From: an uncultured Gammaproteobacteria bacterium
GTDB taxonomy: Bacteria > Patescibacteriota > Patescibacteriia > Magasanikbacterales > UBA922
Length of the DNA: 64,000 nt
Assembly: GCA_964447765.1 (NCBI GenBank)
Contig: CAYUTO010000001.1
Span: 205,870 to 269,869, forward strand
Reading direction: 5' to 3'
Part shown: positions 14,310-30,089 of the stretch, in pieces
Position numbering within the stretch: the first letter of the stretch is position 1
Layout: every line of letters begins with the position of its first letter
The notes under the pieces: model-generated
Databases searched by the model: none
What the model was told of the DNA's origin: nothing
Seen by the model: the letters and a program-made list of their open reading frames with translations, nothing else
Program-made: the position numbers and the translations under genes

Positions 14310-14421
14310 TTACACGAGTCATGTATATTGTATCTTGTTTAGACTTCGTCAAATTTTTGTGTACTTGGTTTGTATTTTAACACAAACACGAGCCAGCTGA
14401 TACACTTTCAGAAATGTGTGG

Positions 14422-14955: not shown

Positions 14956-14958
14956 ACA

Positions 14959-15435: not shown

Positions 15436-15469
15436 AAATAATAAATGTAGTAGAAGAAAACCCTCTATC

Positions 15470-16183: not shown

Positions 16184-16194
16184 ACCATAATCAT

Positions 16195-16896
16195 TTAGTT
16201 CCCCTGCATATCAAGCGTGAACTCACTCCAATTATAGGCAGCGAACATCTGGCTGACGAAACTATCAATACTAAATATTGCACGTTCAGCTTCACATGCT
16301 TTTTTCTCTGTTTCATCATAATTCGCGCATTGTGTGTATTGAACGGCAAAATCAAATATAACCGTACCGCTATTATGTGCTACCGTATAGTTGTAGGTGT
16401 TGTAACTACTTCCTGCAGCACCCTCGGTTTGTGTAGTTACACAATATTCGTATCTACCTACTACATGCTTTTCTGTTTTTGCAGAAACAACCATACTCTC
16501 GTCGCTTCCCGCAAGATTACACGAGTATGGAGTCGTAGAAGCGATGGTAATTTTTGCATTAGTACCAAGCACATGCATGTACTTTGTCGTCAGTTTATCG
16601 ATATTCAAAAATGTTTGAGCTTGTTTGTCACCGATATAGAGACTCCACTGTATTTTATTTTCCCCTCCTGATGACATTGGGCATGCTTCGAATTCACAGC
16701 TAGGCCCAGTGCGGCCCACATATGATCCATCGGGACATACTTTTGCGTCCATAGTACATGCGACAGGTTCGGTTGACGTCGGACTTACGACGATGACGGT
16801 CGGAGGTGTTGATGGTCCATAGAGGACTTTGTCGTAGACGATATAGCCGAGTGCTCCGACGAGAGCGAGAATAATGACGATGAGTAAGGCTTTCAT
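16195..16896 (-). CDS. Secreted or membrane-anchored Cys-rich protein, paralog 2 of the tandem pair
   Basis: Same architecture and the same six-cysteine motif (CTMDAKVCPDGSYVGRTGPSCEFEAC) as the 15470-16183 gene. Confidence 0.6.
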   Translation of the reverse strand: MKALLIVIILALVGALGYIVYDKVLYGPSTPPTVIVVSPTSTEPVACTMDAKVCPDGSYVGRTGPSCEFEACPMSSGGENKIQWSLYIGDKQAQTFLNIDKLTTKYMHVLGTNAKITIASTTPYSCNLAGSDESMVVSAKTEKHVVGRYEYCVTTQTEGAAGSSYNTYNYTVAHNSGTVIFDFAVQYTQCANYDETEKKACEAERAIFSIDSFVSQMFAAYNWSEFTLDMQGN

Positions 16897-17009
16897 ACTG
16901 CAAGTGGGTTAGTGATTGAAATGGCTGAATCTCTGCTTTTGCAGTGATGACAGTTTTTTATGTGTTCACTGTAGCACACCACACCTTTATTGTCATTTTA
17001 CCCTCTCTT

Positions 17010-17129
17010 TGTGTCATTCCGAGCGACTGAGTCTTCGAGGGAATCGAGGAATCCCTTTCATTACGCAAACACGCGCTAAACAAGGGATCCTTCGACTCGT
17101 CGGATGCACTCCTCGCTCAGGATGACACA
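17010..17129. repeat. GC-rich imperfect hairpin of about 120 nt (outer arms TGTGTCATTCCGAGCGAC / TCGCTCAGGATGACACA)
   Basis: Seen directly. It lies between the paralog-2 start and the arfB stop. Local GC content is clearly above background. No flanking T-run is present. Confidence 0.5.
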
Positions 17130-17134
17130 ATACC

Positions 17135-17536
17135 CTATTCATCATCCATCATTCTCCGTCCCCGCTTCTTTTCTCCGGTGATTTTCTTTGCTGTAAGCCG
17201 TCGCTCTTTTGAAGCATATGTCCGCTTGGTCGGACGGCGGATTTTCATCGGACGAAGTGCGACGCCCACGAGCGCATGCAATTTTTCGATTGCCACCTGC
17301 CTATTCTGCGACTGTGATCGCTCTTCCGAAGCATCGACCATAAGTTCATCATCCTGATTGATACGATTCTCAAGCTGGGTTCGTACTGCTTCTTTTTCTT
17401 CGTAGGTAAGCACGCTCGAAGCTCCGATATTCCATCGGAGCTGAACTTTGGTCTCAACCTTGTTGACATTCTGCCCACCCGGACCGCCGGAGCGCGCAGT
17501 ATCGATCGTGAATTCTGATTCGGGGATTCGAAGCAT
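17135..17536 (-). CDS. arfB: Alternative ribosome-rescue factor ArfB (peptidyl-tRNA hydrolase, RF-1 GGQ domain)
   Basis: The GGQ motif SGGPGGQNVNKVETKV is present, followed by a basic C-terminal tail. Length is 133 aa. Confidence 0.85.
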   Translation of the reverse strand: MLRIPESEFTIDTARSGGPGGQNVNKVETKVQLRWNIGASSVLTYEEKEAVRTQLENRINQDDELMVDASEERSQSQNRQVAIEKLHALVGVALRPMKIRRPTKRTYASKERRLTAKKITGEKKRGRRMMDDE

Positions 17537-17539
17537 AGA

Positions 17540-18004
17540 TTATTTCTCCGACATTTCTTTCAAGAGTACGAGTGCTTTTGGCCACGTGTCATTAAAAAAC
17601 TCTTCGTATTCTTCAATAGTATCCACGTCCACCATTACCTGCGTGCCTCCATCTTTTTGCACAAAGGTATAATTCTCGAATGCAGGGGTCCATTGCTTTG
17701 CCTGTTCGCTCTCAGTATCTACTTCACCCTTATCATTCACCACACCGATATGCTCGATTGAAATAAATTCATGTTTTCTATTCTCAGCAACACGAGATGC
17801 CATACCGCCTTTGTTACCATCATCATCGACGCCGATAAATTTGAGATCAGATCCTTTTTCCCAACTTCCCTCATACCATGATTCGGTTTTGGTACCAGGA
17901 CTAAAAGGCTTGGTCCATTTCATGTAGGTTTCTTTCTCCAGCATGGTATTCCATACTTTTTCTACAGGTACTGCAATAAAGATTTCGTGATGCAATGTTT
18001 TCAT
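17540..18004 (-). CDS. SRPBCC superfamily protein (Activator of Hsp90 ATPase homolog 1-like)
   Basis: A 154 aa protein with an N-terminal helix reading EKVWNTMLEKETYMKW and the sheet pattern typical of AHSA1/START-like proteins. Confidence 0.6.
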   Translation of the reverse strand: MKTLHHEIFIAVPVEKVWNTMLEKETYMKWTKPFSPGTKTESWYEGSWEKGSDLKFIGVDDDGNKGGMASRVAENRKHEFISIEHIGVVNDKGEVDTESEQAKQWTPAFENYTFVQKDGGTQVMVDVDTIEEYEEFFNDTWPKALVLLKEMSEK

Positions 18005-18052
18005 ATGATTATAGTTAAAAATAAGAGCTTAGTTAATTTTTTGGGATATTAT

Positions 18053-18277
18053 CTATGCTATACCATCAGGTTTGGCATCAAACTCCCGCTGCATTCTCTC
18101 CATCCATTGCTCTTTGTTTTCACCGGTACGCTCCGCCATACTCATGACCTGTTTCTGATGTTCTTCATCTGATCCCATGTGCGACATACCTTTTTGCATC
18201 ACCTCCATAAATGTATTTCCGGAAAATTCTTCATCACACGCACCTCCTAATTCGCGACATGTAAATGTTTTGCTCAT
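18053..18277 (-). CDS. DUF1059 small metal-binding protein
   Basis: The sequence MSKTFTCRELGGACDEEFSGNTFMEV...HM...H matches the DUF1059 pattern. Confidence 0.65.
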   Translation of the reverse strand: MSKTFTCRELGGACDEEFSGNTFMEVMQKGMSHMGSDEEHQKQVMSMAERTGENKEQWMERMQREFDAKPDGIA

Positions 18278-18295
18278 ATAATTGAAATTATGTGG

Positions 18296-18691
18296 TTAGA
18301 TAATTTTTTCTAACTTTCCTTTTCGTTTCACAATATTTTTGTAATCCCACTGAATGGTTTTTGACTTCTTGAGCCAGCGCTTCAGTTCGCTCACCTTAAT
18401 TTCTTCGAGTGAATTGTAAAAAATCGATGCGTCTTTGAATTTCCCGGTTCCATGCTCTAGATTTGCTTCGTCAAAATCTGCGCCACTCCAGAACATCAAT
18501 CTGATTCCTGCTTTTTGTTTGCTATACCCGACAATCGGATTACCATCGAGAAACCACACCGGATGCCGGTGCCACACCTTATTCTCAGATTTAGGAATGC
18601 CTTTCTCTATCTCATTTGCCAATGCATTGGCGATTTTCTTGTCTTCTTTGTCGAGTGCTTTGTTATACGCGGTAATGTCTTTATGTATCAT
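18296..18691 (-). CDS. DUF1801 (YdhG-like) domain protein
   Basis: Length and motifs fit DUF1801. It is one of three DUF1801 paralogs in the window. Confidence 0.6.
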   Translation of the reverse strand: MIHKDITAYNKALDKEDKKIANALANEIEKGIPKSENKVWHRHPVWFLDGNPIVGYSKQKAGIRLMFWSGADFDEANLEHGTGKFKDASIFYNSLEEIKVSELKRWLKKSKTIQWDYKNIVKRKGKLEKII

Positions 18692-18718
18692 ACAATAACT
18701 AAAAAATAAGCTATATGA

Positions 18719-19015
18719 TTAGTATAGCACTTCTCTTGGTTTTACTCCCCTCCCTGGACCAATAATTCCGTCGTGTTCGAGTTCGTCCATAATCATTGCC
18801 GCGTGAGCGTACCCAATTTTTAATTTTCTCTGAAGTAGAGATGCACTTGCTTTCTTGGTTTTTATCACAATATCTTTTGCTTGCTGGTACACTTCCTGAT
18901 GATATGGAGGTGTTTTCGTATCAGTAATATAGCCACGCTCCATAAAACTGTGCTTGAGCGAGGTAATCTCTTCGAGAATCTGATCAATTTTTTTCTCAAT
19001 CGTATTTTTGGACAT
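18719..19015 (-). CDS. Standalone FtsK-gamma (winged-helix, KOPS-binding type) domain protein
   Basis: The sequence SASLLQRKLKIGYAHAAMIMDELEHDGIIGPGRGVKPREVL matches the FtsK C-terminal gamma domain. There is no ATPase domain. Confidence 0.75.
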   Translation of the reverse strand: MSKNTIEKKIDQILEEITSLKHSFMERGYITDTKTPPYHQEVYQQAKDIVIKTKKASASLLQRKLKIGYAHAAMIMDELEHDGIIGPGRGVKPREVLY

Positions 19016-19029
19016 ATGATTATTTAAAA

Positions 19030-19779
19030 TTATTCTTCAAATTTTTGTCGTGCATTCCAATACCCGCACCAATCACAACTATCTCCAGTTTCTAGAATCA
19101 TATCATTCTCGAGACACTCTTTGATTTCACCAAGTGTGCCCTCGACCCAGGAATCGTCGCCGGTGTAGGGAATCAGGTTCACGTCGAATTCGATACGTTT
19201 ATCGAACGCAGTCCGGTCCATCTTCCCGGTGCAATAGACAAAGTACCCGGTGTGAGACACCGGTAATCCATTCTGGCGGATAAGCCACTGATACACTTCC
19301 ATCTGCCGCTTGTACCCATCCTGCCATTCCTTATCGAGCTCGGTCACTGCCTCGTCTTTTGCGGTCGCCTTGTAATCCACGACAATATACTCACCTGCCC
19401 CACTGATCCAGAGATCATCGATCGCTCCAGACACGAGCATTCCAGTCGGCTGGTGCAGATGCTGTACTCCCATGAAATTATGTCGCCATGCATCCAGCTC
19501 GGCATGCGCCACGGGCCTGGCATCGATGCCATACTCCTTCTGCAGTGGATGCTGTTCGCCCCGCACCCGATGTGCGTCGAATTCCTGCTTCAGGAGATAG
19601 TCGACTGCGCTATTGATAGAGAATGGGAATCCGGGGACGCGCTTCAGCCCGAGCTTATTGTCGAGGTAGAAGCAGCGAGGGCACTCGAGAAACAGGTCGA
19701 TCTTTGATCGACTCAGTTTCCAGTTTTTTCCTCCGTAGTTCCATTCTGCTCCGCGAGTGGGGTTGTAGTAGTCGGACAT
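19030..19779 (-). CDS. Cas4-like PD-(D/E)XK nuclease (RecB-family fold with N- and C-terminal cysteines)
   Basis: The N-terminal Cas4-type motif CPRCFYL, the core VVDYK and the C-terminal C-x2-C (CDWCGY) are present. GC content is higher than in the neighbouring genes. Confidence 0.65.
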   Translation of the reverse strand: MSDYYNPTRGAEWNYGGKNWKLSRSKIDLFLECPRCFYLDNKLGLKRVPGFPFSINSAVDYLLKQEFDAHRVRGEQHPLQKEYGIDARPVAHAELDAWRHNFMGVQHLHQPTGMLVSGAIDDLWISGAGEYIVVDYKATAKDEAVTELDKEWQDGYKRQMEVYQWLIRQNGLPVSHTGYFVYCTGKMDRTAFDKRIEFDVNLIPYTGDDSWVEGTLGEIKECLENDMILETGDSCDWCGYWNARQKFEE

Positions 19780-19783
19780 AGGG

Positions 19784-20389
19784 TTATTCTAAATTTTCAA
19801 GTCTTTTTCTTAATTCATCTAAAGTTTCTTCGCCGTATTTCCAATAAGCAGTGCCCTGAACTCCGTAATCATACCCTAATATTTTTTGCGCAGAAGTAGA
19901 TAAACTTGTTATTTCATTATTGTAACTAATGTGTTTATTATCCACTACTGTCGCCTTTATATTTTCATTACGACTAAAAACTAATTCTGATCCTATAGCA
20001 ATATTCACCATACTAAAATTAAACTTTTCTCTTATCTCTGACCTAACTTGATCAATAGCGTTCTGGTCATCTTTGTTATCAATAAATTCTTTCTTTGGAG
20101 TAATATCCTCTATTTCTCTGAGCTTTAGGGCAGACCGGACTCTTTCGGGAGAAATTCTAAAAAATTCTCTTTTAGGATTTATCCGATTATCAGCAAAAGC
20201 ATCATGTAATTGAGTTTCTATAAACGTAGCGCCTGTTACTGTGCAGGCATAGAAACATGTAAAAGGTAAAGGAACACTGGTAGAGCTGCTCAACTCTCTA
20301 ATTCTTTGCTCAAGACTTGTTGATGTTTTTCCAATTTTCACATAGCCCGGCATTGACTCGTTCGTTAAAATATAAATAATTTCATTCAT
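19784..20389 (-). CDS. T5orf172 (GIY-YIG-like) plus DUF4357 domain protein
   Basis: The sequence IYILTNESMPGYVKIGKTS...RIRELS fits the T5orf172/MUG113 domain. A C-terminal DUF4357-like region follows. Confidence 0.6.
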   Translation of the reverse strand: MNEIIYILTNESMPGYVKIGKTSTSLEQRIRELSSSTSVPLPFTCFYACTVTGATFIETQLHDAFADNRINPKREFFRISPERVRSALKLREIEDITPKKEFIDNKDDQNAIDQVRSEIREKFNFSMVNIAIGSELVFSRNENIKATVVDNKHISYNNEITSLSTSAQKILGYDYGVQGTAYWKYGEETLDELRKRLENLE

Positions 20390-20393
20390 AAAT

Positions 20394-23225
20394 TTATGTA
20401 ATCAGATTATTAATTGTAGAAGTAATCATAATTCTTTCTGTCTCAACAATCACATACCGCCACGGTTTTGTGATACCATATTTTCCGAGGTTTTTTGACA
20501 CGAGCTCACAATATTTTTCAGCTGTTTTCTTCTTCTCCTGCACGTCGATGCTTTGAACTTCAGTACTTGGTTTTACTTCGATCATCACAATCTCATTCTC
20601 AAACTCAACAACAAAATCTGGCTCATACCTGTGCTGGGAGTTACCAAGCTGATCACGCCAATACAACCCTTCGAACTGATTCGGAGCAGGCTTGAGCCAG
20701 TCTTCAACAGATGAATCCGTGTCCAGTAAATATGCCATCCGTGCTTCATCAGAAGAATCAAATTTATACATTGAATGGCAGGCCTTCTTGAATCCTGTGT
20801 AGATCTTATCTCTTGAGAAGCGGTCAATCTGTGATTCCAAAGTAACAGGCTTTTCATCAAGGGTTCGGGAAATGTTGTACTGCTCCAAGTAAGGTCTCGC
20901 ATCGCGGATACCTGACTCCAAGTAGCTCTCGGACTTGAATTCTTTGTGTGTAAGTATCTGATCGTATATCTCCTTGGCAATTAGTCGGAAGTTGTTTTCC
21001 ACCATCATCTTGAGTGCATTGTTATCACTGACGAATGATCTGTAGTGATCTACAGCTTGCTTCGTTAATTTAAGCAGCAGATTTTTTTGGTTTTTATCAT
21101 CATAGTCTATGAGCGGTTCTTCAACAAGAGCCGAAAGGATAGTGCTTTCTGGACTTTGTGCACGACCCTCACCAAGACTTGACACACGAGTGAGTACGGT
21201 CTCTCTCTGACTAGAATGAGCTACACCAAACAAGTCCTTTTGTTCTTTCCCTTGTAGGGACTGTTCGAGTATTGAAGCATCCGTTGCGTACCTACTTAAT
21301 TTCTTAGTATCTAAATCAAAATCGGTAATAACAAGCTCTCCATAATGGGGAGTGAGCATTAACCTCGGAATCGGGATATTTCGGACCTCTATGGTTTGCC
21401 TAGAGATACGCCCGATATTCTCAAGCTCTTGCTTTGCGGGTTCGCTCAGTATATTAAATAACGATCCTTCGTCGAATACCATTTCGGATGATATCTTCCT
21501 CGCTTCATTTTTTGCGGCAATCTCCACGATCTCATCCACCTTGTTTTGTATGGTGAGAGCCACAACATCCGCTGGTGTGTCAGTTCCAATTACAGCGCTC
21601 ACGGTTTTTGTTGCTTGAGCTTCAATCTCTTGCATTATCGCAGGACTGGCTTTAATCTGCTCCTCAATGTTTGTAACAAACACTGACTGTACCTCAATAA
21701 CTTCTCTTACTATTTTTGTATCGTCGGTAGAAATACTTTCAATATTGGATGGCTGTATAAGTTTAGAGTGTTGTGCCTCCTCAATCACTTTAGCGTAATT
21801 GTCATGAGCAACAATCATTACTCGATCAACAAGTTTATTTCCCGTTTTCTCTCCATAAGGCAAACGGAGGCCTCTGCCAATAGTCTGCTCTGTTAATATT
21901 TCCGATGCAGATGATCGGATCGGCGCAATAGTGTAAATATTCGTAACATCCCAACCTTCTTTAAGCATGTTTACGTGGATAACAATTTCTACGATATTAT
22001 CCGGGTGCTCGAGTGATATCAATTTTTCAATTGTTTCGTCTGCTTCATCCCCTCTTGTTTTTGTATGAACTTCAATCACCTTACCTTTGTACGCACCACC
22101 TCTAAATTCATCACTATCAATACGTCTTCGCAGTAAGCCTGCGTGAATTGTATCTTTAGCAACAACAAGCATAACAGGCTTTACTTCCTGTCTGTTATTT
22201 TCGAGAGCATACTCTTTCAAAGCCACTTTTGCGCGTTCATGAAAAAAAGCTGCAAGTTGTAATTTACGAGCATCAGTATCTATAGAATCCTTCTGAAGCT
22301 GACTAAAATCCACATCTGCTTCCGTACCAACCCACGGATCTTTTACATACCCATCACGAATGGCGTCACCTAAATTATAGGTGTAAAAAATATTCTTTTT
22401 TGTTTCTGGGTGTTTTTCTTTACCTCGACCAATCATATTTCCAGTATATGGCGTAGCCGTAAATTCAAGCCCAAACAATGGGTTAATTCGATCAAGCGAC
22501 TCCAACGCCGCATCAGCATGATAATGATGGGATTCATCCATCAGTATCACCAAGTCACTTTGCTCCTTCAGGTAGTCAAAGTAGGACAAAAGCTTACCGT
22601 CTTCAACGCCGAAAATTTCTGAACCTTTTGTGATACCTTTTTCTTTTTCGATATCCTTCTGCGCAAACTGCTGAATGTTAAAAATATTTATTTCTATCTT
22701 ATTTTTGAAAAGCTGTGCCAGTTGGCTTTGTCCGTAATTTTCTTTTGTGATTACTTTTACATTCGACGTAGTGAGTTCTTCGATGCCTCGAAAGACGTAC
22801 TTCGGATTACTAGCCTTGCTAAAATCTTCCACCAATTTACGGTAGATGGTGTTGCCCGGTGCCACGATCATAAAATGCTGTACGCCATATACAAGATAGA
22901 GGTAGGTCACAAATGCACCCATCAGACGGGTTTTCCCCACACCGGTAGCAAGAGCAAAAGTATATGCAGGGAAAGTACGCTCAAAAGACTGAAATTGTCT
23001 TAAATCAGGAATTGCATTTGAGTATTCTCTAGTCGCAATCTCAATCTCTCCGATATTTACTCGAACGTCTCTCTTCATCCTCTCTATTACTTTTTTACCG
23101 GCCTTACTTTCTAAGTAGTCAGCAAAAAATACTAAGCTTTTTTCCTGAGGAGCTCGCAGACTCAGTGCGTTTGTTATGTATTGTAGAGCTTGTTCTTTTT
23201 TCATAAGATTATTCGTCAGATTCAC
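20394..23225 (-). CDS. res: Type III restriction-modification Res subunit (SF2 helicase plus C-terminal PD-(D/E)XK endonuclease)
   Basis: The Walker A motif ATGVGKTRLMG and the DEAH-like motif LMDESHHY are present. The helicase C-terminal motif QTIGRGLR is present. The C-terminus reads EPDFVVEFENEIVMIEVKP. Length is 943 aa. The gene overlaps mod by 17 nt. Confidence 0.8.
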   Translation of the reverse strand: MNLTNNLMKKEQALQYITNALSLRAPQEKSLVFFADYLESKAGKKVIERMKRDVRVNIGEIEIATREYSNAIPDLRQFQSFERTFPAYTFALATGVGKTRLMGAFVTYLYLVYGVQHFMIVAPGNTIYRKLVEDFSKASNPKYVFRGIEELTTSNVKVITKENYGQSQLAQLFKNKIEINIFNIQQFAQKDIEKEKGITKGSEIFGVEDGKLLSYFDYLKEQSDLVILMDESHHYHADAALESLDRINPLFGLEFTATPYTGNMIGRGKEKHPETKKNIFYTYNLGDAIRDGYVKDPWVGTEADVDFSQLQKDSIDTDARKLQLAAFFHERAKVALKEYALENNRQEVKPVMLVVAKDTIHAGLLRRRIDSDEFRGGAYKGKVIEVHTKTRGDEADETIEKLISLEHPDNIVEIVIHVNMLKEGWDVTNIYTIAPIRSSASEILTEQTIGRGLRLPYGEKTGNKLVDRVMIVAHDNYAKVIEEAQHSKLIQPSNIESISTDDTKIVREVIEVQSVFVTNIEEQIKASPAIMQEIEAQATKTVSAVIGTDTPADVVALTIQNKVDEIVEIAAKNEARKISSEMVFDEGSLFNILSEPAKQELENIGRISRQTIEVRNIPIPRLMLTPHYGELVITDFDLDTKKLSRYATDASILEQSLQGKEQKDLFGVAHSSQRETVLTRVSSLGEGRAQSPESTILSALVEEPLIDYDDKNQKNLLLKLTKQAVDHYRSFVSDNNALKMMVENNFRLIAKEIYDQILTHKEFKSESYLESGIRDARPYLEQYNISRTLDEKPVTLESQIDRFSRDKIYTGFKKACHSMYKFDSSDEARMAYLLDTDSSVEDWLKPAPNQFEGLYWRDQLGNSQHRYEPDFVVEFENEIVMIEVKPSTEVQSIDVQEKKKTAEKYCELVSKNLGKYGITKPWRYVIVETERIMITSTINNLIT

Positions 23226-24816
23226 TTTCTTCTTCGTCGATTTCTTCCATTACCCGCTCTTTAATAGGGAGGAGATATTCTTTCATTCCAAACTGGCACG
23301 CCTTCAGAATTGACTGCGGTATTTTCTTAATCGTTATACGAGCATCTACCTTTTCACATCCGGGCTCAAACTTCTTCGGGCAAATAAGAAGGGTCTCATT
23401 TGTGCCTAAATGGCTCACGATCTGTTGGACCATCGCCACTGAGAGCATTTGCGTAGTTACATAGATACTATTCTTGCCTTGCCCCTTGCCATGCCTCCAG
23501 TAGTCAGTAGGGCTTGGAGCAAAGGTGTAATTGGTGAGCTTACACATTGCACGGATGAGTTTGACGTCATTGTAGTAGCTGTCGATCACTGGATTGCCGA
23601 ATTCATCAATTACCACGAAGCTAGGGGCGAGTTCATAAAACTTGAAACCGCCTCCGCCTTTCCAATCAAGAGTCTCTGTAAGTTTGAGTCCGTCATTACC
23701 ATCTACCACCTTTTTCATACGCGTCTGCACGTGAGTATATGCGTGTTCACCCATTTCAATGCCAATGAATTTTCTACCCATCTTTAAAGCTACTGCCGTT
23801 GCCGTGCCAGAGCCCAGGAATGAATCAAGAACAATGTCTCCCTTCTCAGAGCCAAGGGTCAAAATCCTCTGGAGAAGTCTTTCAGGTTTGGGAGTATCAA
23901 AAATGTCTTGATCAAACAGTTGTTTGATTTCTTTTTTCCCCTCTTGATTGTCACCGACGTCTTCACGCATCCACAATGTCATTGACACGACGCCGTCTTT
24001 AACTTCCGACAAAAATCGTTTAATCCTGGGAACGTTATCCCCGGTAGACCCGAAATAAATACGATTGTCTTCAACCATTTCTTGATATTTTTCTTTACTA
24101 AACCGCCAACAAGCTTGGGGCGGAGGCAATACTTTCTTTCCATTAGGGGTAACTATTTCATAAACCCTTGATTCAACCCTGGGTCCTACTTGGATCGGTC
24201 CGGATGCCCAAGGACCCCTTGAATCATTGTCTGGATTAGAAAAACTAGCATTAAGTTCGTCGGTCCTTGGTAGTTTATTTAAAATAAGAGGATTGTCACT
24301 TTTACCGTACACAAGGATAGCGTCATGGTTCCTTGAAAGAGTTTTCTTGAGATTAATTGGAGCGTATGACCTTTGCCAAATTACTTCATCGATAAAATTA
24401 TTCCTGCCAAATACTTCGTCACATAGAACTTTCAGGTAGTGACTTTCGCCTGCATCAATAGAAATCCATATCGTTCCGTTGTCTTTGCTCAATAAAACTT
24501 TCAAAATTTCAAGTCTGGGTCTTATTAGAGAGAGCCATGTTGAGTGTTCGACGCTATCGTCATAATGTTCAAAAGCTTCGCCGGTGTTGTAAGGAGGGTC
24601 AATGTAGATACATTTTATTTTTCCTTCGAATTCCGGAAGTAGTGCCTTGAGCGCGAGCAGATTGTCACCATGAATAATCATATTCTCGGTGTCCTTGTCG
24701 CCATACGACAGATCAGTCCGCTCTTCCAAGATGCGCGGTTCAATGTTGGCGATATCATACTCGGGATTGTTTTTCCCGATCCACGTAAGCTCTAGTTTTT
24801 GTTTGTTATTGCTCAT
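23209..24816 (-). CDS. mod: Type III R-M Mod subunit (beta-class N6-adenine DNA methyltransferase)
   Basis: The DPPYN motif (CIYIDPPYNTGEAF) precedes the FxGxG motif (VLDSFLGSGTATAVA). Confidence 0.85.
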   Translation of the reverse strand: MSNNKQKLELTWIGKNNPEYDIANIEPRILEERTDLSYGDKDTENMIIHGDNLLALKALLPEFEGKIKCIYIDPPYNTGEAFEHYDDSVEHSTWLSLIRPRLEILKVLLSKDNGTIWISIDAGESHYLKVLCDEVFGRNNFIDEVIWQRSYAPINLKKTLSRNHDAILVYGKSDNPLILNKLPRTDELNASFSNPDNDSRGPWASGPIQVGPRVESRVYEIVTPNGKKVLPPPQACWRFSKEKYQEMVEDNRIYFGSTGDNVPRIKRFLSEVKDGVVSMTLWMREDVGDNQEGKKEIKQLFDQDIFDTPKPERLLQRILTLGSEKGDIVLDSFLGSGTATAVALKMGRKFIGIEMGEHAYTHVQTRMKKVVDGNDGLKLTETLDWKGGGGFKFYELAPSFVVIDEFGNPVIDSYYNDVKLIRAMCKLTNYTFAPSPTDYWRHGKGQGKNSIYVTTQMLSVAMVQQIVSHLGTNETLLICPKKFEPGCEKVDARITIKKIPQSILKACQFGMKEYLLPIKERVMEEIDEEESESDE

Positions 24817-24822
24817 AATTTT

Positions 24823-27771
24823 TTAAATGATTTTCCAGCTGATTGTAAATAATGTTTCTATTTGTGATTTCTGTTTTAGCTGAGCTTCTATTCCTTCCAG
24901 TAACTTTTCTTTTTTAATCTCTACCTCGTCCTGTGCCTCATATAACTTTCTCCGCATCTCATTCCTTTTTTTCTCTGAATCTTTTATTTCCCGTTGAGCC
25001 TTGAGCTTCTCTTCAAGATTAACAATTTTCTTGGCATTTGTTTTGGCTGTCTTGATATCAATATCAAGCTTCCTTAGATCAAGCTCGAGACCTTTCTTTA
25101 CATCATCTGACCAGTTATCGAGTTTATCTACTTCATCATCAAAAAACTCACTGTTTCTTTCTGCGATCTGACCGGAAATTACAAAAATACTTTGTTGCTC
25201 AAGCTCATCTAGCTTCGTGAACTCTTCAGGTGACAGCGTTTTAAGTGTAACTGATTGAGTAGAAAGCGAGAACAGTTTCTTAATTATGTCTCTTTCAATA
25301 GGCTCTCCATTATTATCGAGCGCAGACACGACAACAGCATCTTCTTTTTCAAAAGCCTCAACGGTGTAGTTAGAAACTTTTAAGGTTCCATGTTTGCCAA
25401 CAAATGGTTCTAGTACGGAAATAATAGACGAGTGATTTGAATAATCAAAAATAATCTCAGCAGACTCAATCTGTTTGTTTTTAACCTCATTCAATATTCT
25501 TTGTGCCAAGGAGTGCCCAGGACGGTAGACGTGCGCGTCTTCCACATTTTTACCAATCTTGTATGGACCTGGATCTATGTCCTCATTTTGAAAAGGATTT
25601 ACTTTGAGAGAAAAAGAATACTCGTGCTCGGCAAAGTCGGCGTTATCCCCCAAGTAGTAACGAGTAACGTCCCATAGCCAGCGTTCATAGGTATCGAGAT
25701 ATGACTGACTCTCTCTTTGGTTGAGTTTAAGCTTTTCGTGAACTTCAGCATCAAAGTTTTCCAGAAGTTTTTGACGTGTATCAGATAAATTACTCTGAAT
25801 ACTCTCATCCATTTCCTCCTGAAGTTTATCGAAGGCGGTGTTGATATCATCAGACGTGCGACATGTCTGATAGATTCCTGCAATTCTCTTTTCAAAATCA
25901 ACACCAGACTCAATCGAACCAAGCACTTCGTCACTCACACCGAATACACCCTTAAACAACTTGAATTTTTGGTCGAGTAATTCATATACACGCTGGTCGG
26001 CTGCATTCTTTCTGTTTACAAAGTTGATTACAACGACATCATGCTTCTGTCCGTAACGATGGCAACGACCGATACGCTGTTCAATTCTCTGAGGATTCCA
26101 TGGTAGATCGTAATTAATAACCAAAGAACAGAATTGAAGATTTACACCTTCTGCTCCTGCTTCAGTAGCGATCATTATTTCTGCTTCATCTTTAAAGTAC
26201 TCAATAAGTGCGGCTCGAGTATCTGCTGTTTTTGAACCAGTTATCTTATCAGTATCCTTATTTTTTTCGAGCCAATTTTTATATATCTCTTTAGATTTTT
26301 CATCATTGTTTGAACCATTGAACAAAACTATTTTGTCTTTGTATCCATTGTTAGCAAGAAGCGTCTGAGCCAAATATCCCTGTGTGATTGTGGATTCAGT
26401 AAAGATAATTGCTTTCTTTTTTGCACCAAGCTCTGCGGTCATCTCGAATCCTTTTTTCAATGCGGTGAGCAAAGCATCTCCCTTAGAGTTTGTGTATATT
26501 TTCTTTGCTATATCGCGGAACCTTTCTAGGTCAATTTTCTCTTGTTCCATTAAAACAATATCTTCTTTCGTAAGAACTTTCTTCTCTTTCTCATCTTCGT
26601 CGTCATCACTTTCTTCGTCATCAATCCACTCATCAGACATTTCTGGAAGAGCTTCAAAATCTCCAAGCAGAGAAATAGTGTCAGAGTCTTGTAGAGGAAA
26701 CTTTGCTTTTGTATCCACAATCAACTGTTCAAGCTTATACACCAACTTATCTAACGTGCTTGCAATAGCAAAGGAAGAAGAAGCTAGAAGCTTTCGCAAA
26801 ATAAGTGTCATCAACTGACGCTGACTAAAAGGTAGTGCGTAAAGTTTTGTTCGTTGTAAGTACTCAGACATTCCATCATAGAGTTCCACTTCTTGTTCAG
26901 TGGGGATGTAGTCCTGAGTAATTGGTTTTCGTTCTGTATAGTTAATGTATTCCAATACTTGTCGACGAAGCGTTCGCATACAGACAGGCTTCAGTCGAGT
27001 TCGTAAATCAACAAACATTTCTTGCTTTGGCTCTACAAGACCAACTTCATTTTCGTAAATATCTTGTTCACGAGAAACTCGTGCATAATTTGCTTTGAAA
27101 CTCTTGAGATCACCAAAGACATGATCGTCAATGATACTCACAAGACCGTAGAGTTCGAGAAGGGAATTTTGTAGTGGAGTCGCTGTAAGTAAAATTTTAG
27201 GAACTTCAGTAAGCGCATCTTTAATTTCACGAGCAATTTTGTTGCTCGTTTTATACACATTACGAAGACGATGTGCTTCATCAATTACTGCCAAGTCCCA
27301 TTTCGTTTGTTTTATATATGGAGACTTTGAACGTGCAAAATGGTAGGAACAAATAACGATTTTATCTTCTTGATTAAATGGATTAAGATTTCCATCTTTT
27401 ATGTATTGATTGAAAGATTTTGCTTCAAGAATTACTGATGGTAAAAAGAATTTTTCGGAAAGTTCATCATTCCATTGCTTTCGCAAACTTGAAGGAACAA
27501 TCAGAAGAATATTTCTCTTTCTCTCAGCCCACTTTTGAGAGAGAACGAGCCCTGCCTCAATCGTTTTACCAAGACCAACCTCGTCAGCAAGAATGGCTCC
27601 TTTAGATAGGGGTGAGCGAAAAGCAAAAAGTGCAGCTTCGATTTGATGAGGATTGAGATCAACTTGTGCATTTGAAAGTGTTGAAGAAAGCTTTTCTAAA
27701 CTATTAGAAGAACAACGCTTTGTTAATTCATAAGCAAAATATTTAGCATGGTAGTCAGTAATTTTTGCCAT
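24823..27771 (-). CDS. SNF2-family helicase with a C-terminal coiled-coil extension
   Basis: Motifs ADEVGLGKTIEAG (I), DEAHRLRN (II) and QRIGRCHRYGQ (VI) are present. The last 120 aa, approximately, are a K/E-rich coiled coil. The stop is 6 nt upstream of the mod start. Confidence 0.85.
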   Translation of the reverse strand: MAKITDYHAKYFAYELTKRCSSNSLEKLSSTLSNAQVDLNPHQIEAALFAFRSPLSKGAILADEVGLGKTIEAGLVLSQKWAERKRNILLIVPSSLRKQWNDELSEKFFLPSVILEAKSFNQYIKDGNLNPFNQEDKIVICSYHFARSKSPYIKQTKWDLAVIDEAHRLRNVYKTSNKIAREIKDALTEVPKILLTATPLQNSLLELYGLVSIIDDHVFGDLKSFKANYARVSREQDIYENEVGLVEPKQEMFVDLRTRLKPVCMRTLRRQVLEYINYTERKPITQDYIPTEQEVELYDGMSEYLQRTKLYALPFSQRQLMTLILRKLLASSSFAIASTLDKLVYKLEQLIVDTKAKFPLQDSDTISLLGDFEALPEMSDEWIDDEESDDDEDEKEKKVLTKEDIVLMEQEKIDLERFRDIAKKIYTNSKGDALLTALKKGFEMTAELGAKKKAIIFTESTITQGYLAQTLLANNGYKDKIVLFNGSNNDEKSKEIYKNWLEKNKDTDKITGSKTADTRAALIEYFKDEAEIMIATEAGAEGVNLQFCSLVINYDLPWNPQRIEQRIGRCHRYGQKHDVVVINFVNRKNAADQRVYELLDQKFKLFKGVFGVSDEVLGSIESGVDFEKRIAGIYQTCRTSDDINTAFDKLQEEMDESIQSNLSDTRQKLLENFDAEVHEKLKLNQRESQSYLDTYERWLWDVTRYYLGDNADFAEHEYSFSLKVNPFQNEDIDPGPYKIGKNVEDAHVYRPGHSLAQRILNEVKNKQIESAEIIFDYSNHSSIISVLEPFVGKHGTLKVSNYTVEAFEKEDAVVVSALDNNGEPIERDIIKKLFSLSTQSVTLKTLSPEEFTKLDELEQQSIFVISGQIAERNSEFFDDEVDKLDNWSDDVKKGLELDLRKLDIDIKTAKTNAKKIVNLEEKLKAQREIKDSEKKRNEMRRKLYEAQDEVEIKKEKLLEGIEAQLKQKSQIETLFTISWKII

Positions 27772-27904
27772 ATATCATTCGAACAACTTATCTCCACAAT
27801 CCTCAAAAAAACAAGCTCACAGCTAGTCTAAATAAGCTGTTTCAGTATATAACTTTCATCTATATACCGCAAATCCGCTAAAACATGCGTATTTTAAGGG
27901 GGTT

Positions 27905-27924
27905 ATAGGGGGTTCGCCCCCTAT
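27905..27924 (-). terminator. Perfect 8 bp stem with a TTCG/CGAA tetraloop (ATAGGGGG TTCG CCCCCTAT) just downstream of recQ
   Basis: Seen directly. Only a weak T-run follows on the minus strand. Confidence 0.35.
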
Positions 27925-27935
27925 CAGAATCTATG

Positions 27936-30089
27936 TTAATTTGTAGATAAAAACAACCGAACGAGCCTAATCTCATCATACGAAAATGTATCACCCAATT
28001 TTTCCTTTACCGGAGACAATGCGCTCGTACCTGCTGCATGAAATGCTTCAGTGATTCGGAGAAATCGTTCGTCTGGAATGGGCTTGAGATATGTGATGTC
28101 CGGCGCCTCACCTGCGGCAAGCAACTGTTCGATATGACTGACGATCGTCCCCACCTTTACTCCTCGACTCCGCGCAATGTCTTCCAACGGAAGTTTGGTA
28201 TCGAGTAATAGTTTGGTTTCTTGATAGGTTGAGCCTGCTCTTCGTATGGTACGTTCCCCATCGGTCCGCACACGCCCTGGGATCGGAGTTTCACTGCGTC
28301 CATGTTCCGTAGCATAGGCGACTATTGCCGAGAGGAATGCAGGGCCGAATGTCGCGAGCTTCTGCGCACCCACACCAAAAATCTCCGCAAGTGACTCACT
28401 CGACTGCGGAATGTATGCAGCCATTTCCTGTAGACTCCGGTCACCAAATACCATGAAGGGCGGAATGCCGCGCTCGTCTGCAATCTGTGATCGAAGATTT
28501 CGGAGTATCTCAAATAGTGCTTCGTCGTACGCGAACGAATCGGTCTCGTCTGATTCGGTGGTTTTAGTCTCTGCCCGCACATCAGGAAGTTCGAGGGTGT
28601 CACGATTCTCGAGCCAGGTGCGTCCTGTTTCAGTCACCGTGATTGTCTGATACATATCTCCTGATTGTAGGAGGAGCCCCTTGTTCACGAGCTGGCGCGC
28701 GATATTCCGCAGGTCTTGTTTCATAAAATTCTTGCCCACAATTCCAAATACTGACAATGTTTCATGTCCACGTTCTCGGATCACGGCAGTGCGCGATCCT
28801 TTGAGAACGTCTGCGACATAGCCGATGCCAAAACGCTGACCTGTCCTGACTACGGCCGAGATAATTTTCTGCGCAATGACCGTCGCGTCAAACGTATTCC
28901 TCGTCGTGGTACAGATATCGCAATTGGCACAGGGCTCCCCTGTCACTGTTTCTCCAAAATATCTAAGTACATATGCCCGCCGACATTCGCCCCCTTCGCA
29001 GAGATCGATCATGATTTTGAGCTTGTCCCATGCGCGTGCTTGTTCCGTTGCATCAACTATTTGTTCGATAAAAAATCCATGTTTGCGGCGGTCTCCTGAG
29101 GAATAGAGAAGGACACACTCGCTTGGCAGGCCGTCTCGACCGGCGCGTCCGGTCTCCTGATAATATCCTTCCACTGTTTTTGGCATATCAGCGTGAATTA
29201 CCAGGCGGATATCTGGCTTATCGATTCCCATACCAAATGCGATGGTTGCGACAATTATGGTGATATGGTCGCGGATAAATTTCTCCTGTGTGTCCCTCCG
29301 TACGACTGGGTCAAGACCTGCATGATAGGGCGCTGCATTGAATCCCGCAGACACGAGATCTGCTGCAATCTCCTCTGTCCCTTTTCTCGAAAAACAATAG
29401 ATGATCGTTGGTTTATCTTGATGAGTCCGGAGCAGTTTGCAGATACGTTCGAATTTGTGTTGTTTCGGTATGATTGAATAATTGAGATTGGGACGATTGA
29501 AACTTGCGACAAATTGTTTTGCTTCCCCCAGATTCAGTTGATGTACAATGTCTCCCCGCACTTTCTCGGTCGCGGTTGCGGTGAGCGCAATGACTGGCAC
29601 ATTTGGAAATACATTTCGGAGCTGGCGCAGGTTGCGGTAGTCGGGACGGAAATCATGTCCCCATTCGGAAATACAATGTGCTTCGTCAATTGCAATTAAT
29701 TTTACGGGAATCGTTTGGAGGAATTTCCGAAATTCAGGCACCGCAAAACGCTCGGGTGCGATATAGATGAGTTTTGCTTCGTTGTTTTTTATTTTCTGAA
29801 ATGCGACTTCTCGCTCTGCTGAAGTGAGCGAACTATTGAGAGACACTGCCGTGATCCCATTTTCCGCAAGCCCGTCGATCTGATCTTTCATGAGCGCGAT
29901 CAGGGGAGAAATCACGAGGGTTATACCAACTTGTGCCACTGCCGGCAATTGATAGCAGAGTGACTTTCCTCCACCTGTCGGCATAAGCACCAAACAATCT
30001 TTGCCCCCGAGTACCGTTTCAATGATTTCCTGCTGGAGCGGACGGAATTCGTCGTAGCCAAAATGTTTTTTGAGGAGGGTGTGGATCAT
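27936..30089 (-). CDS. recQ: ATP-dependent DNA helicase RecQ
   Basis: The N-terminus FGYDEFRPLQQEIIETVLGGKDCLVLMPTGGGKSLCYQLPA is present. The motif DEAHCISEWGHDFR and the zinc-finger cysteines are present. An HRDC-like region is present. Length is 717 aa. Confidence 0.9.
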   Translation of the reverse strand: MIHTLLKKHFGYDEFRPLQQEIIETVLGGKDCLVLMPTGGGKSLCYQLPAVAQVGITLVISPLIALMKDQIDGLAENGITAVSLNSSLTSAEREVAFQKIKNNEAKLIYIAPERFAVPEFRKFLQTIPVKLIAIDEAHCISEWGHDFRPDYRNLRQLRNVFPNVPVIALTATATEKVRGDIVHQLNLGEAKQFVASFNRPNLNYSIIPKQHKFERICKLLRTHQDKPTIIYCFSRKGTEEIAADLVSAGFNAAPYHAGLDPVVRRDTQEKFIRDHITIIVATIAFGMGIDKPDIRLVIHADMPKTVEGYYQETGRAGRDGLPSECVLLYSSGDRRKHGFFIEQIVDATEQARAWDKLKIMIDLCEGGECRRAYVLRYFGETVTGEPCANCDICTTTRNTFDATVIAQKIISAVVRTGQRFGIGYVADVLKGSRTAVIRERGHETLSVFGIVGKNFMKQDLRNIARQLVNKGLLLQSGDMYQTITVTETGRTWLENRDTLELPDVRAETKTTESDETDSFAYDEALFEILRNLRSQIADERGIPPFMVFGDRSLQEMAAYIPQSSESLAEIFGVGAQKLATFGPAFLSAIVAYATEHGRSETPIPGRVRTDGERTIRRAGSTYQETKLLLDTKLPLEDIARSRGVKVGTIVSHIEQLLAAGEAPDITYLKPIPDERFLRITEAFHAAGTSALSPVKEKLGDTFSYDEIRLVRLFLSTN

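Follow-up and report, generated by a model that had tools for sequence, protein, structure and literature searches.

The stretch of DNA analysed here (64,000 nucleotides, referred to as the window) probably contains a defence-gene swap site located just downstream of recQ on a Patescibacteria-like chromosome. In the reading we favour, the current cargo of this site is a three-gene restriction-modification (R-M) unit encoding an SNF2 translocase, a type III methyltransferase (Mod) and a type III-like Res protein, with SNF2 serving as a facultative booster of Mod-Res. Two further small genes, T5orf172 and Cas4-like, would represent modules separate from this triad. A first-pass annotation had treated all five genes as a single composite system, which was not borne out by locus comparison: the conserved unit comprises three genes, SNF2-Mod-Res.

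Results and discussion

As originally annotated, five co-directional open reading frames are found on the minus strand. SNF2 (24823-27771, 982 aa) opens the conserved triad and is followed by Mod (23209-24816, 535 aa) and Res (20394-23225, 943 aa when read from a GTG start). Downstream lie T5orf172 (19784-20389, 201 aa), the last gene of a variable cassette, and the Cas4-like gene (19030-19779, 249 aa), which delimits the swap site on its 3' side. The gaps of 6 nt between SNF2 and Mod, 4 nt between Res and T5orf172 and 4 nt between T5orf172 and the Cas4-like gene agree with the initial description, whereas the reported 17-nt mod/res overlap rests on the longest open reading frame (GTG 23225) and had to be revised. 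Most Res homologues, the closest ones included, begin at the residue aligned with M8, which suggests that the true Res start is likely ATG 23204, 4 nt past the mod stop, yielding a predicted protein of 936 aa. The tight co-directional run extends past the five genes, with an FtsK-gamma open reading frame 14 nt after the Cas4-like gene and a DUF1801 open reading frame 27 nt beyond the former. The previously noted compositional mosaic is real, with GC contents of 0.377 (SNF2), 0.429 (Mod), 0.406 (Res), 0.332 (T5orf172, GC3 0.25) and 0.520 (Cas4-like, GC3 0.61) in a window of 0.414. Modular assembly, also proposed at that stage, draws support from this composition and from a sister genome (L180) compared directly with the window.

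L180 shares the same backbone and carries other cargo between recQ and the Cas4-like gene, replacing SNF2-Mod-Res-T5orf172. The Cas4-like gene itself is kept (92% nucleotide and 93% amino acid identity); homology begins 9 nt before its ATG and the cargo upstream differs. At the opposite end, the variable cassette is bounded on the left by a conserved 52-bp element (27828-27879, minus strand), which precedes the cargo operon. On the recQ side this element is preceded by a GC-rich hairpin. It shares 94% identity with the stretch just upstream of the first L180 cargo gene, and the two sequences diverge after it. The element holds the inverted repeat GTATATA-N9-TATATAC and may function as a promoter or operator; a sigma-70 scan returned nothing above chance. 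Based on this comparison, the Cas4-like gene is the predicted fixed, resident last gene of the swap site.

Conservation of the triad was assessed using 572 SNF2 relatives from GTDB species genomes, of which the best 80 were used for locus comparison. These 80 loci represent more than 15 phyla, with SNF2 identities of 53-77%, and follow the order SNF2, 0-4 variable defence genes, Mod, Res. We defined informative loci as those with at least 8 kb downstream of SNF2 (50 loci). Mod and Res were found downstream in 49 of them (45 by clustering of open reading frames, 4 by tblastn). SNF2 thus keeps its place beside type III-like Mod/Res in homologous loci, the opposite of the outcome that the first-pass annotation had named as refuting its reading. 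Among the best 80 of 572 loci, Mod and Res were the only conserved partners of SNF2, and none with enough flank lacked a downstream methyltransferase and helicase. The architecture is still present at 33% SNF2 identity, and the same order was found in enterobacterial, Rhizobium, Roseomonas and Monoglobus replicons. Of 5,426 complete E. coli genomes, 30 carry an orthologous triad, and Salmonella plasmids harbour such triads as well, while Klebsiella plasmids have a variant in which SNF2 pairs with other methyltransferase/helicase types. In enterobacterial copies a small HTH gene precedes SNF2, whereas the window locus has no such gene. In close relatives, identity to the window triad is 90-95% for SNF2, 78-80% for Res and 60-90% for Mod, and these relatives inherit the triad as one unit. 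The high variability of Mod is expected if its specificity (target-recognition) region is exchanged.

Between SNF2 and Mod lies a variable cargo slot which, where occupied, holds 1-4 genes (up to ca. 6 kb) and leaves the order of the triad unchanged. Inserts include Schlafen/AlbA_2, RhuM, HTH plus M78 peptidase, AIPR, DUF2130, DUF3800, GmrSD, OLD-type ATPase, YhcG and Bro-N genes, the kind of defence gene typically embedded in R-M loci; the slot can also hold IS elements or, in other cases, Abi genes. Conversely, loci were also retrieved with Res as seed from a viral-contig collection, duplicates included. Of the 25 full-length ones having 7 kb or more upstream, 13 carry SNF2 and about half do not. 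SNF2 thus looks like a facultative add-on, as it travels with Mod-Res and the same Mod-Res family nevertheless occurs without it.

The SNF2 protein matched the Pfam families SNF2-rel_dom (4e-35) and Helicase_C (1.5e-21), the PADLOC DrmD model PDLC02619 (704 bits) and NCBIfam DISARM_DrmD_b (703.5 bits, under the cutoff of 950), with NCBIfam DrmD NF038317 aligning to residues 505-957. RapA is its best solved (PDB) relative (7e-38); DDM1 and LSH are also among the solved relatives (ca. 1e-26). Across 14 homologues GLGKT, DEAH and the arginines of motif VI do not vary, and a Pfam search found no nuclease domain. By sequence, the protein is a predicted DrmD/RapA-like (Swi2/Snf2) ATPase. Of the long coiled-coil tail described earlier, a C-terminal helical tail is retained in a low-confidence AlphaFold model (mean pLDDT 52), where helices 848-915 and 919-971 (pLDDT 70-84) may form a hairpin.

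Mod is a type III beta-class N6-adenine (or N4-cytosine) DNA methyltransferase matching Pfam N6_N4_Mtase (1.6e-44), PADLOC MTase_III (560 bits) and the solved Mod proteins of H. pylori (1.8e-45) and EcoP15I (9e-37), with DPPY at residue 73 preceding FLGSG (FxGxG) at 333. In Res, a type III-like SF2 ATPase is joined to a TnsA-like PD-(D/E)XK nuclease at the C-terminus (Pfam ResIII 1.7e-19, SWI2_SNF2 4e-09, Tn7_TnsA-like_N 6.8e-08; PADLOC REase_III 425 bits). Its helicase motifs (GVGKT 95-99, DESH 230-233, TATP 256-259, QxxGRGLR 447-454) and nuclease motif (PD870...E883-x-K885) show at least 90% conservation across 44 homologues. The domain calls of the first-pass annotation stand for both proteins, as they do for SNF2 and the Cas4-like protein. 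Its term canonical is too strong for Res, since the sole PDB match, EcoP15I Res, is weak (E = 4e-7 over ca. 60 residues) and the nuclease is TnsA-like. The RE_endonuc domain is instead a feature of the other of two Res types that partner SNF2 in related loci. Catalytic motifs are present in all three proteins, and both the SF2 ATPase and the PD-ExK nuclease of Res are intact.

We infer that SNF2, Mod and Res cooperate physically or functionally, and by analogy SNF2 would have a role in restriction. The related SNF2 proteins DrmD of DISARM class 1, ArmA of ARMADA and BrxHII of BREX type 3 are thought to be helpers beside a methylase, and the same role is proposed for SNF2. According to a preprint on class 1 DISARM, hardly any protection against phage Nami was left when drmD and drmMI were deleted together. 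ARMADA II, in turn, depends on ArmA as an essential component. DrmD and ArmA stand next to Eco57I/PglX-like methylases, a class other than the type III Mod of the window, so the analogy is architectural and not homologous.

SNF2 might instead serve modification, by opening protein-covered host DNA to the methylase or by coupling ATP hydrolysis to methylation, and so prevent self-restriction rather than aid cleavage. We consider this unlikely, even though SNF2 recurs beside methylases in DISARM class 1, ARMADA, BREX type 3 and Hma, is fused to one in MhgA, and has DDM1 and LSH among its solved relatives. The comparison to DDM1/HELLS and the SNF2 domain of Dnmt5 draws on literature on these eukaryotic SNF2 ATPases. 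SNF2 also pairs with two Res types and, in Klebsiella, with other methyltransferase/helicase types, as would suit a partner less variable than Res. However, the adjoining methylases are of different classes and type III Mod proteins are 25-90% identical among loci, so that no conserved Mod surface is evident, and Mod-Res pairs lacking SNF2 evidently escape self-restriction.

SNF2 could also be independent, as a single-gene defence or housekeeping helicase that clusters with a self-sufficient type III R-M system via defence islands. SNF2-only defence proteins such as HmaA exist, and both the Mod-Res loci without SNF2 and the separation of SNF2 from Mod by the unrelated inserts described above would fit mere defence-island neighbourhood equally well. 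This possibility is rather improbable given that Mod then Res follow on the same strand and in the same order in nearly all informative loci across phyla at SNF2 identities of at least 53%, a pattern repeated in the replicons named above. The consistent presence of a downstream methyltransferase and helicase among the best 80 of 572 loci with enough flank and the missing nuclease domain in SNF2 also speak against it.

The two small genes behave differently from the triad. The GIY-YIG-like T5orf172 protein matched Pfam T5orf172 (9.5e-18) and the PADLOC candidate family PDC-S57 (235 bits), upholding this half of the original call, while its DUF4357 half had no Pfam match even at E <= 10. The gene was found in none of the best 80 of 572 SNF2 loci and is missing from the closest relatives (SNF2 90-95%), where DUF2779 or unknown genes take its place. 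Homologues with 70-85% identity trail an AAA_15/21 ATPase, a type III R-M system with a SIR2-HerA insert or, in another case, an N6_N4 methyltransferase plus MutH. T5orf172 is thus a putative interchangeable accessory that encodes a small nuclease-fold protein from a family of defence candidates.

The Cas4-like protein is a predicted Cas4/RecB-like PD-(D/E)XK nuclease (Pfam PDDEXK_1 7e-13; Cas4 models ca. 20 bits vs a cutoff of 65). The CPRxxYL and CxxC motifs recognized earlier are present as CPRCFYL (residues 33-39) and CDWC (235-238), alongside D121/D122, D135-Y-K137 and Q159xxxY163, with C33/C36 and C235/C238 as the cysteine pairs. Its relatives trail many unrelated R-M types. Among 80 Cas4-like-seeded metagenome loci, none lay next to this SNF2; R-M-type genes on the same strand were located up to 9 kb upstream in 19 of 33 cases and downstream in 1 of 24, based on a limited query set without a genome-wide background. 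The Cas4-like family would therefore generically trail R-M operons and is probably not a specific partner of SNF2-Mod-Res.

These observations make it very unlikely that the five genes are one obligate composite anti-phage system of a type III R-M pair, a remodeller and two effector nucleases. Tight co-directional spacing (6, 4 (or -17), 4 and 4 nt) and DNA-acting folds in all five products are consistent with such a system, as are a Cas4-like gene after Res in 3 of the best 80 of 572 SNF2 loci (L004, L011, L074) and a distant T5orf172 homologue (31% identical) after Res in L194. Against it stand the distribution of both small genes, the retention of the Cas4-like gene in L180 with the other four genes swapped, and the GC spread of 0.33 to 0.52.

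No name for the SNF2-Mod-Res unit was found in PADLOC 2.0, NCBIfam 20.0 or the searched literature, and PGAP annotation of the E. coli, Salmonella and Klebsiella copies gives generic names; within these sources, the initial suggestion of a possibly undescribed system is supported in this respect. As first noted, DUF1998 is not present, and neither DrmA, DrmB nor DrmC was found beside the genes, so DISARM identity was rejected despite the DrmD-like SNF2. That the locus is a class 1 DISARM system degraded or left incomplete by drmABC loss is most improbable and already contradicted: DrmD models are the strongest family matches of SNF2, but DrmD_b scores under its cutoff, DrmA, DrmB/DUF1998 and DrmC/PLD are missing from the window neighbourhood and the best 80 of 572 loci, and the methylase belongs with type III Mod proteins rather than with DrmMI.

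Conclusion

SNF2-Mod-Res is a widespread, apparently unnamed three-gene unit, and a swap site currently holding this SNF2-boosted unit together with two separate small genes is the probable explanation of the locus. Mod would mark host DNA at a short site, and Res, judged by homology to type III enzymes, would cut unmarked DNA via ATP-triggered sliding and collision. The SNF2 translocase may move on incoming double-stranded DNA and strip off bound proteins or remodel the duplex, allowing Mod-Res complexes to find their sites, meet and cleave. The Cas4-like gene is probably co-transcribed with whichever R-M cargo lies upstream, and its product could plausibly process or degrade the DNA ends made by restriction.

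Results

The five minus-strand ORFs reported by the first-pass annotation were recovered at exactly the coordinates it gave, with the SNF2 gene as the first of the operon (24823-27771), followed by mod (23209-24816) directly upstream of res (20394-23225, longest-ORF start), the T5orf172 gene (gene 4, 19784-20389) and the Cas4-like gene (gene 5, 19030-19779). Profile searches upheld the domain calls for all five proteins, apart from the DUF4357 domain assigned to gene 4, for which no Pfam match was obtained at E <= 10 with either the whole protein or its C-terminal 102 residues; T5orf172 and MUG113 were the only Pfam matches within that limit. The 17-nt mod/res overlap described earlier is probably an artefact of choosing the longest ORF. 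In most homologues, the closest ones among them, the start is the residue aligned with M8, which places the likely res start at ATG 23204, 4 nt past the mod stop. The mosaic GC content was borne out, with values of 0.33 for T5orf172, 0.38 for SNF2, 0.41 for Res, 0.43 for Mod and 0.52 for the Cas4-like gene. The tight co-directional run extends beyond gene 5, with a minus-strand ORF for a 98-aa stand-alone FtsK-gamma (winged-helix) protein following after 14 nt (18719-19015). We considered this ORF as a sixth member and rejected it, as homologues were found in none of the related loci and a Bro-N gene occupies its position in L180, a sister genome with the same backbone and other cargo, which indicates a second small variable slot.

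According to profile matches, the operon is surrounded by ordinary chromosome with genes for AlaRS, LeuRS, LigA, GatA, ComEC (48776-50290) and RecQ, and the RecQ cluster contains a protein named from Candidatus Woesebacteria. A promoter and terminator scan of 17000-28200 gave counts no higher than shuffle expectation. Searches for island-flanking repeats and CRISPR arrays gave nothing meaningful, with no repeat array in the window, and tRNA-Ser was the sole Rfam match. The leucyl-tRNA synthetase (50772-53648) has a NUDIX domain inserted after the editing domain (residues 398-519, 3.8e-13), and a 2808-aa protein (53664-62090) combines 13 LVIVD repeat matches with a Peptidase_S74 (endosialidase chaperone) domain, its gene containing a 138-nt tandem repeat in 2.3-2.6 copies (55957-56319). 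Further, a 702-aa TrwB/TraG-like type IV coupling protein (5136-7244) is encoded amid an otherwise housekeeping stretch.

The SNF2 protein consists of SNF2-rel_dom and Helicase_C domains (Pfam) and has no nuclease domain of its own. Its best family matches were the DrmD models of PADLOC (704 bits) and NCBIfam (DISARM_DrmD_b, 703.5 bits, cutoff 950; DISARM_DrmD, 253.9 bits, cutoff 610), and a second DrmD model also reached its C-terminal tail. As DrmD is the top match yet the scores stay below the NCBIfam cutoffs, we regard SNF2 as belonging to a close sister family of DrmD and not as a member. RapA is the nearest solved structure. Thousands of relatives are present in the database, the closest ones coming from Patescibacteria. 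An AlphaFold2 model based on a 14-sequence alignment (mean pLDDT 52, pTM 0.26) was too poor for a fold search and was used solely for the secondary structure of the C-terminal helices.

Mod was matched by N6_N4_Mtase (Pfam, 1.6e-44), PADLOC MTase_III (560 bits) and EcoP15I Mod (9e-37). With DPPY73 located ahead of FLGSG333 (FxGxG), it is a beta-class N6-adenine methyltransferase homologous to EcoP1I/EcoP15I Mod, as in type III systems. In Res, Pfam identified ATPase domains of the ResIII and SWI2_SNF2 families and, at the C-terminus, a TnsA-like nuclease; motifs I, II, III and VI of the protein as well as PD870...E883-x-K885 are at least 90% conserved among 44 homologues. Res thus has the type III arrangement, in which an SF2 ATPase is fused at its C-terminus to a PD-(D/E)XK nuclease and encoded right after mod, and its kinship to EcoP15I Res is remote (4e-7). 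Judged by sequence, the SNF2 ATPase, the methylase and the ATPase-nuclease are all intact.

Conservation of the operon was analyzed by scanning one genome per GTDB species for SNF2, which yielded 572 loci, the best 80 of which (53-77% identical over the full length) were compared by tblastn and ORF clustering. These 80 loci come from more than 15 phyla, including Patescibacteria, Bacteroidota, Planctomycetota, Nitrospirota, Acidobacteriota, Pseudomonadota, Bacillota and Verrucomicrobiota, and share one single-strand architecture: SNF2, zero to four variable genes, Mod and Res. SNF2 proved to be conserved beside Mod/Res in homologous loci, namely in 49 of the 50 loci with at least 8 kb downstream; both genes were found by clustering in 45 of them and by tblastn in four of the remaining five. 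Among the best 80, the Res type of the window occurs in 47 loci and another Res with an RE_endonuc domain in ten. The slot at the SNF2-Mod junction was empty in 18 loci and held one gene in 23, two in 10, three in 2 and four in 3. Its genes encode Schlafen/AlbA_2-HATPase_c_4, RhuM, HTH plus M78 peptidase with a small partner, AIPR, DUF2130, DUF3800, GmrSD, OLD-type and other AAA ATPases, YhcG/DUF1016 and Bro-N proteins, in addition to several conserved proteins lacking a Pfam match such as a 156-aa (c13) and a 176-aa (c19) cluster. The named families are those common inside R-M operons. In close relatives with 90-95% identical SNF2, Res is 78-80% and Mod 60-90% identical, indicating that the triad is co-inherited while Mod diversifies, as expected if its specificity (target-recognition) region is swapped. 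Several SNF2-Mod-Res loci also encode a DUF2779 protein of about 500 aa right after Res, often accompanied by a 139-aa partner and in some cases encoded on the other strand (L082, 17394-19347; L085, 19176-21102; L026, 17267-18676, minus strand; L062, 17327-18049, minus strand). Similarity between DUF2779 and the Cas4-like protein was not detectable, so these are different PD-(D/E)XK families that both occur after Res.

In the reciprocal test, an alignment of window-type Res was used as a seed in a viral-contig collection. Of the full-length Res loci obtained, 25 had 7 kb or more of upstream sequence. Mod was directly upstream in all of these and SNF2 was present in 13, leaving 12 with the same Mod-Res family and no SNF2, several of these being duplicates of one element. 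As the SNF2 clade was always found with Mod-Res and Mod-Res also occurs alone, the dependence is one-sided, and SNF2 looks like a facultative add-on to Mod-Res. The loci without SNF2 could also be read as showing that SNF2 is an independent neighbor of Mod-Res, a less likely alternative, given that Mod and Res follow SNF2 in 49 of the 50 informative SNF2-seeded loci.

The triad is also found in hosts that are cultured and tractable. Fifty plasmids matched at E <= 1e-50, among them plasmids of Salmonella, Klebsiella, Providencia, Rhizobium, Cupriavidus and Deinococcus, and of the 5,426 complete genomes of E. coli, 30 have the triad on the chromosome. End-to-end alignment with the window proteins was obtained for those of both E. 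coli and Salmonella (SNF2 47%, Mod 39% and Res 35% identity), which PGAP names 'SNF2-related protein', 'site-specific DNA-methyltransferase' and 'DEAD/DEAH box helicase'. The architecture is kept at 33% SNF2 identity on a Monoglobus replicon; haloarchaeal SNF2 relatives (32% identity) have a different gene context. Klebsiella/Raoultella IncF plasmids encode an HTH protein and a 43% identical SNF2, behind which lie genes for a methyltransferase of 1046 aa and a DEAD/DEAH protein of 1120 aa (Klebsiella pneumoniae plasmid pS270-1-6, locus L176, 7766-17518), neither of which could be aligned with the Res of the window; this operon, with its larger proteins, represents another variation on the SNF2-methylase-helicase theme, carried by clinical plasmids. 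In the copies of enterobacteria, Rhizobium, Monoglobus and some Patescibacteria (L173, 6232-6432; L175, 11814-12014; L174, 8814-9041; L083, 9796-9996; L178, 8698-8901), a 66-75-aa HTH gene lies directly before the SNF2 start or overlaps it; in E. coli it is labelled MAD1 of MADS ('mads1') by PGAP. We rejected it as a fourth core component, as it is absent from the window and found in only about five of the 80 GTDB loci, although it was seen in the loci L083 and L084.

The two downstream nuclease genes behave differently from the triad. The Cas4-like protein matches PDDEXK_1 (Pfam), and both motifs previously quoted for it are present, CPRCFYL and, near the C-terminus, CDWC. Only 3 of the 80 SNF2 loci have the gene after Res. 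Metagenome seeding on this protein retrieved more than 580 relatives of a 249-aa family (57-79% identical), and a window-type SNF2 was found beside none of the best 80, whose neighbors are R-M genes and not cas genes. In these loci the Cas4-like gene is usually the last co-directional gene behind very different restriction operons: HsdR with an HsdM/S fusion and an AAA_13 ATPase, a PLD-SNF2 helicase with an Eco57I/MmeI-type methylase and DUF4365, Mod-x-Res-AAA_23, type I HsdR, or an ATP-cone/Mrr nuclease. Within 9 kb upstream, R-M-type genes on the same strand were found in 19 of 33 loci, compared with 1 of 24 downstream. The family therefore looks like a generic 'R-M tail' nuclease that is not yet described.

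The T5orf172 gene was found in none of the 80 SNF2 loci and in none of the closest SNF2 relatives, where Res is followed by DUF2779 and a 139-aa gene or by four unknown genes. Its protein matches PADLOC PDC-S57 (PDLC05041, 235 bits, residues 2-198), which is a candidate family only. Homologues with 70-85% identity trail other modules, such as an AAA_15/21 ATPase with overlapping stop/start, a type III R-M system into which a SIR2-HerA pair is inserted, and an N6_N4 methylase with a MutH-like nuclease. One 31% identical homologue follows Res in L194, an SNF2-Mod-Res locus.

Comparison with L180 (GCA_964435035.1) located the variable cassette. Its backbone, common with the window at 84-92% nucleotide identity, extends from PadR and cupin to RecQ and resumes at the Cas4-like gene (92% nucleotide, 93% amino acid identity) and DUF1801. 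Between a 52-bp element and the Cas4-like start codon the cargo is wholly different, consisting in L180 of a 312-aa gene, a 1341-aa T5orf172-ResIII-Eco57I fusion, a 304-aa gene and a 133-aa gene. Homology restarts 9 nt ahead of the Cas4-like ATG, with the preceding stop codon 4 nt away in both genomes. The cassette thus corresponds to window 19789-27827 (SNF2, Mod, Res and T5orf172), and the Cas4-like gene is the fixed 3' resident of the swap site. The 52-bp element (window 27828-27879, L180 13308-13359) is 94% conserved upstream of two unrelated cargo operons and contains the inverted repeat GTATATA-N9-TATATAC, with a GC-rich hairpin just before it on the recQ side. This element may serve as a promoter/operator common to both operons or as a recombination anchor of the swap site. 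The L180 fusion (14335-18360) is a single chain combining T5orf172 (weak match), ResIII and an Eco57I-type methylase, so that at this site the T5orf172 fold is seen again in company with restriction genes, here as a fusion.

Discussion

The first-pass annotation had proposed that the five genes form one composite system. Based on our comparison these boundaries are wrong: the conserved unit is the triad, and the two nuclease genes are hitch-hiking. From its gene content and distribution we interpret the triad as a widespread variant of type III restriction that has three genes, one of them encoding a dedicated DrmD-like partner. As in the classical type III systems EcoP15I and EcoP1I (Mod2Res1-2), mod lies directly before res, Mod is beta-class, Res combines SF2 and PD-(D/E)XK domains, and PADLOC type III models match both proteins. 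Unlike these systems, the triad begins with a third, dedicated SNF2 gene and has a cargo slot between SNF2 and mod, while its Res carries a TnsA-like nuclease instead of RE_endonuc and is remote from EcoP15I Res. The slot contents (RhuM, AIPR, GmrSD, Schlafen-like, OLD-type ATPase) are typical of R-M operons with embedded defence genes; intra-operon hot spots of this kind are also known from the PADLOC 'Hma-embedded candidates' and type I R-M operons.

Class 1 DISARM (drmD-drmMI-drmA-drmB-drmC) resembles the triad in starting with an SNF2 of the DrmD/RapA kind, followed by an adenine-type methylase and a helicase-type effector. It is defined by a core of DrmA, DrmB/DUF1998 and DrmC, with a pfam13659 methylase as DrmMI (class 1 DISARM preprint). 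The earlier view that the locus is not DISARM holds: DrmA (helicase), DrmB (DUF1998) and DrmC (PLD) were absent from the scanned window genes and formed no conserved cluster in the 80 related loci, the window methylase is of another class (PF01555, type III Mod), the effector is a type III Res, and SNF2 scores below the family cutoff. ARMADA type II comprises the Snf2 protein ArmA, the PglX-like methyltransferase ArmB, the YprA/DUF1998 helicase-nuclease ArmC and the UvrD protein ArmD, and, like the triad, has a single co-directional operon in which a methylase and a large SF2 helicase-nuclease accompany a RapA-like Snf2. The window, however, has no YprA/DUF1998 helicase, UvrD or PglX-like methylase; Mod (N6_N4_Mtase) and Res (ResIII, SWI2_SNF2 and TnsA-like only) are of type III ancestry. 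BREX-related 'BR' systems have BrxX-type methylases. Hma (HmaA SNF2 helicase, HmaB methylase, HmaC ATPase) also pairs SNF2 with a methylase, but its SNF2 carries a nuclease domain, whereas the window protein has no NOV_C nuclease and scores 192 bits with the HmaA model compared with 704 for DrmD, and HmaC is absent.

The PGAP label 'mads1' prompted a comparison with MADS (methylation-associated defence system, mad1-8), which is likewise methylation-based and whose MAD1 label is given to the small HTH gene at the start of enterobacterial triad copies. MADS was ruled out by the absence of MAD6, MAD7 and MAD8, all three of which the detection model of its authors makes mandatory. An HTH gene is also lacking from the window copy, no MAD-specific model was among the NCBIfam matches of the locus, and the HTH of the E. 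coli copy was the only component so labelled. Gene 5 shares the RecB/Cas4 nuclease motifs and terminal cysteines of Cas4 but lies far below the Cas4 cutoff (TIGR00372, 20.4 bits, cutoff 65; PADLOC Cas4, about 20 bits), and neither a CRISPR array nor cas genes were observed in its vicinity. Its cysteines are arranged as CxxC...CxxC, the Cas4 pattern being C...CxxCx5C. A full-text search, including by RefSeq accession and with many subscription papers and REBASE outside its scope, found neither a name for nor a test of SNF2 combined with type III Mod/Res. A 2026 preprint remarks, in no more than general terms, that the restriction-related proteins of these bacteria often have links with SNF2 and other helicases.

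In the mechanism we propose, Mod would mark self DNA and Mod-Res would restrict unmarked DNA by the type III sliding-collision route, while SNF2 may translocate on duplex DNA and clear obstacles or otherwise widen the reach of Mod-Res. Such a role would parallel the requirement for ArmA, which is essential for defence in ARMADA II, and the loss of protection against phage Nami upon joint deletion of drmD and drmMI in class 1 DISARM. Next to this reading, and besides an SNF2 that is independent of Mod-Res, SNF2 might act on the methylation side, which would fit its occurrence with a methylase in the named systems. Least likely is that the whole five-gene set is one obligate system; the genes are tightly spaced in the window, and neither nuclease gene follows the triad through its related loci.

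Beyond the translocase role favored here, we tentatively put forward two linked proposals, which we consider possible but less likely than not. First, DrmD-like SNF2 proteins could be portable 'plug-in' translocases that upgrade self-sufficient type III enzymes here and DrmABC/YprA effectors elsewhere, and might enable the effectors to act on protein-coated or single-site DNA or to resist anti-restriction proteins. Second, the Cas4-like gene could encode a restriction-agnostic 'tail' nuclease, being retained at the 3' edge of a cassette-exchange site and co-transcribed with arriving R-M cargo; the nuclease would finish off cleaved DNA, possibly in genome-reduced bacteria assumed to have no RecBCD/AddAB.

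SNF2 helicases of the DrmD, ArmA and BrxHII kind adjoin methylases in several large defence systems, where their role has been described as uncharacterised. Here the same kind of helicase is joined to type III restriction, whose ATP-dependent enzyme is comparatively well understood, and as the system consists of three genes, spans more than 15 phyla and has orthologues in E. coli chromosomes and Salmonella plasmids, the SNF2 contribution is directly testable. Our analysis separates conserved partners from hitch-hikers, shows an intra-operon cargo slot and a recQ-side defence swap site in a Patescibacteria-like genome, and identifies a Cas4-like family that habitually closes R-M operons. If the plug-in reading is true, the triad would stand beside DISARM and ARMADA as their type III counterpart and offer a simple system for learning what DrmD-type proteins do.
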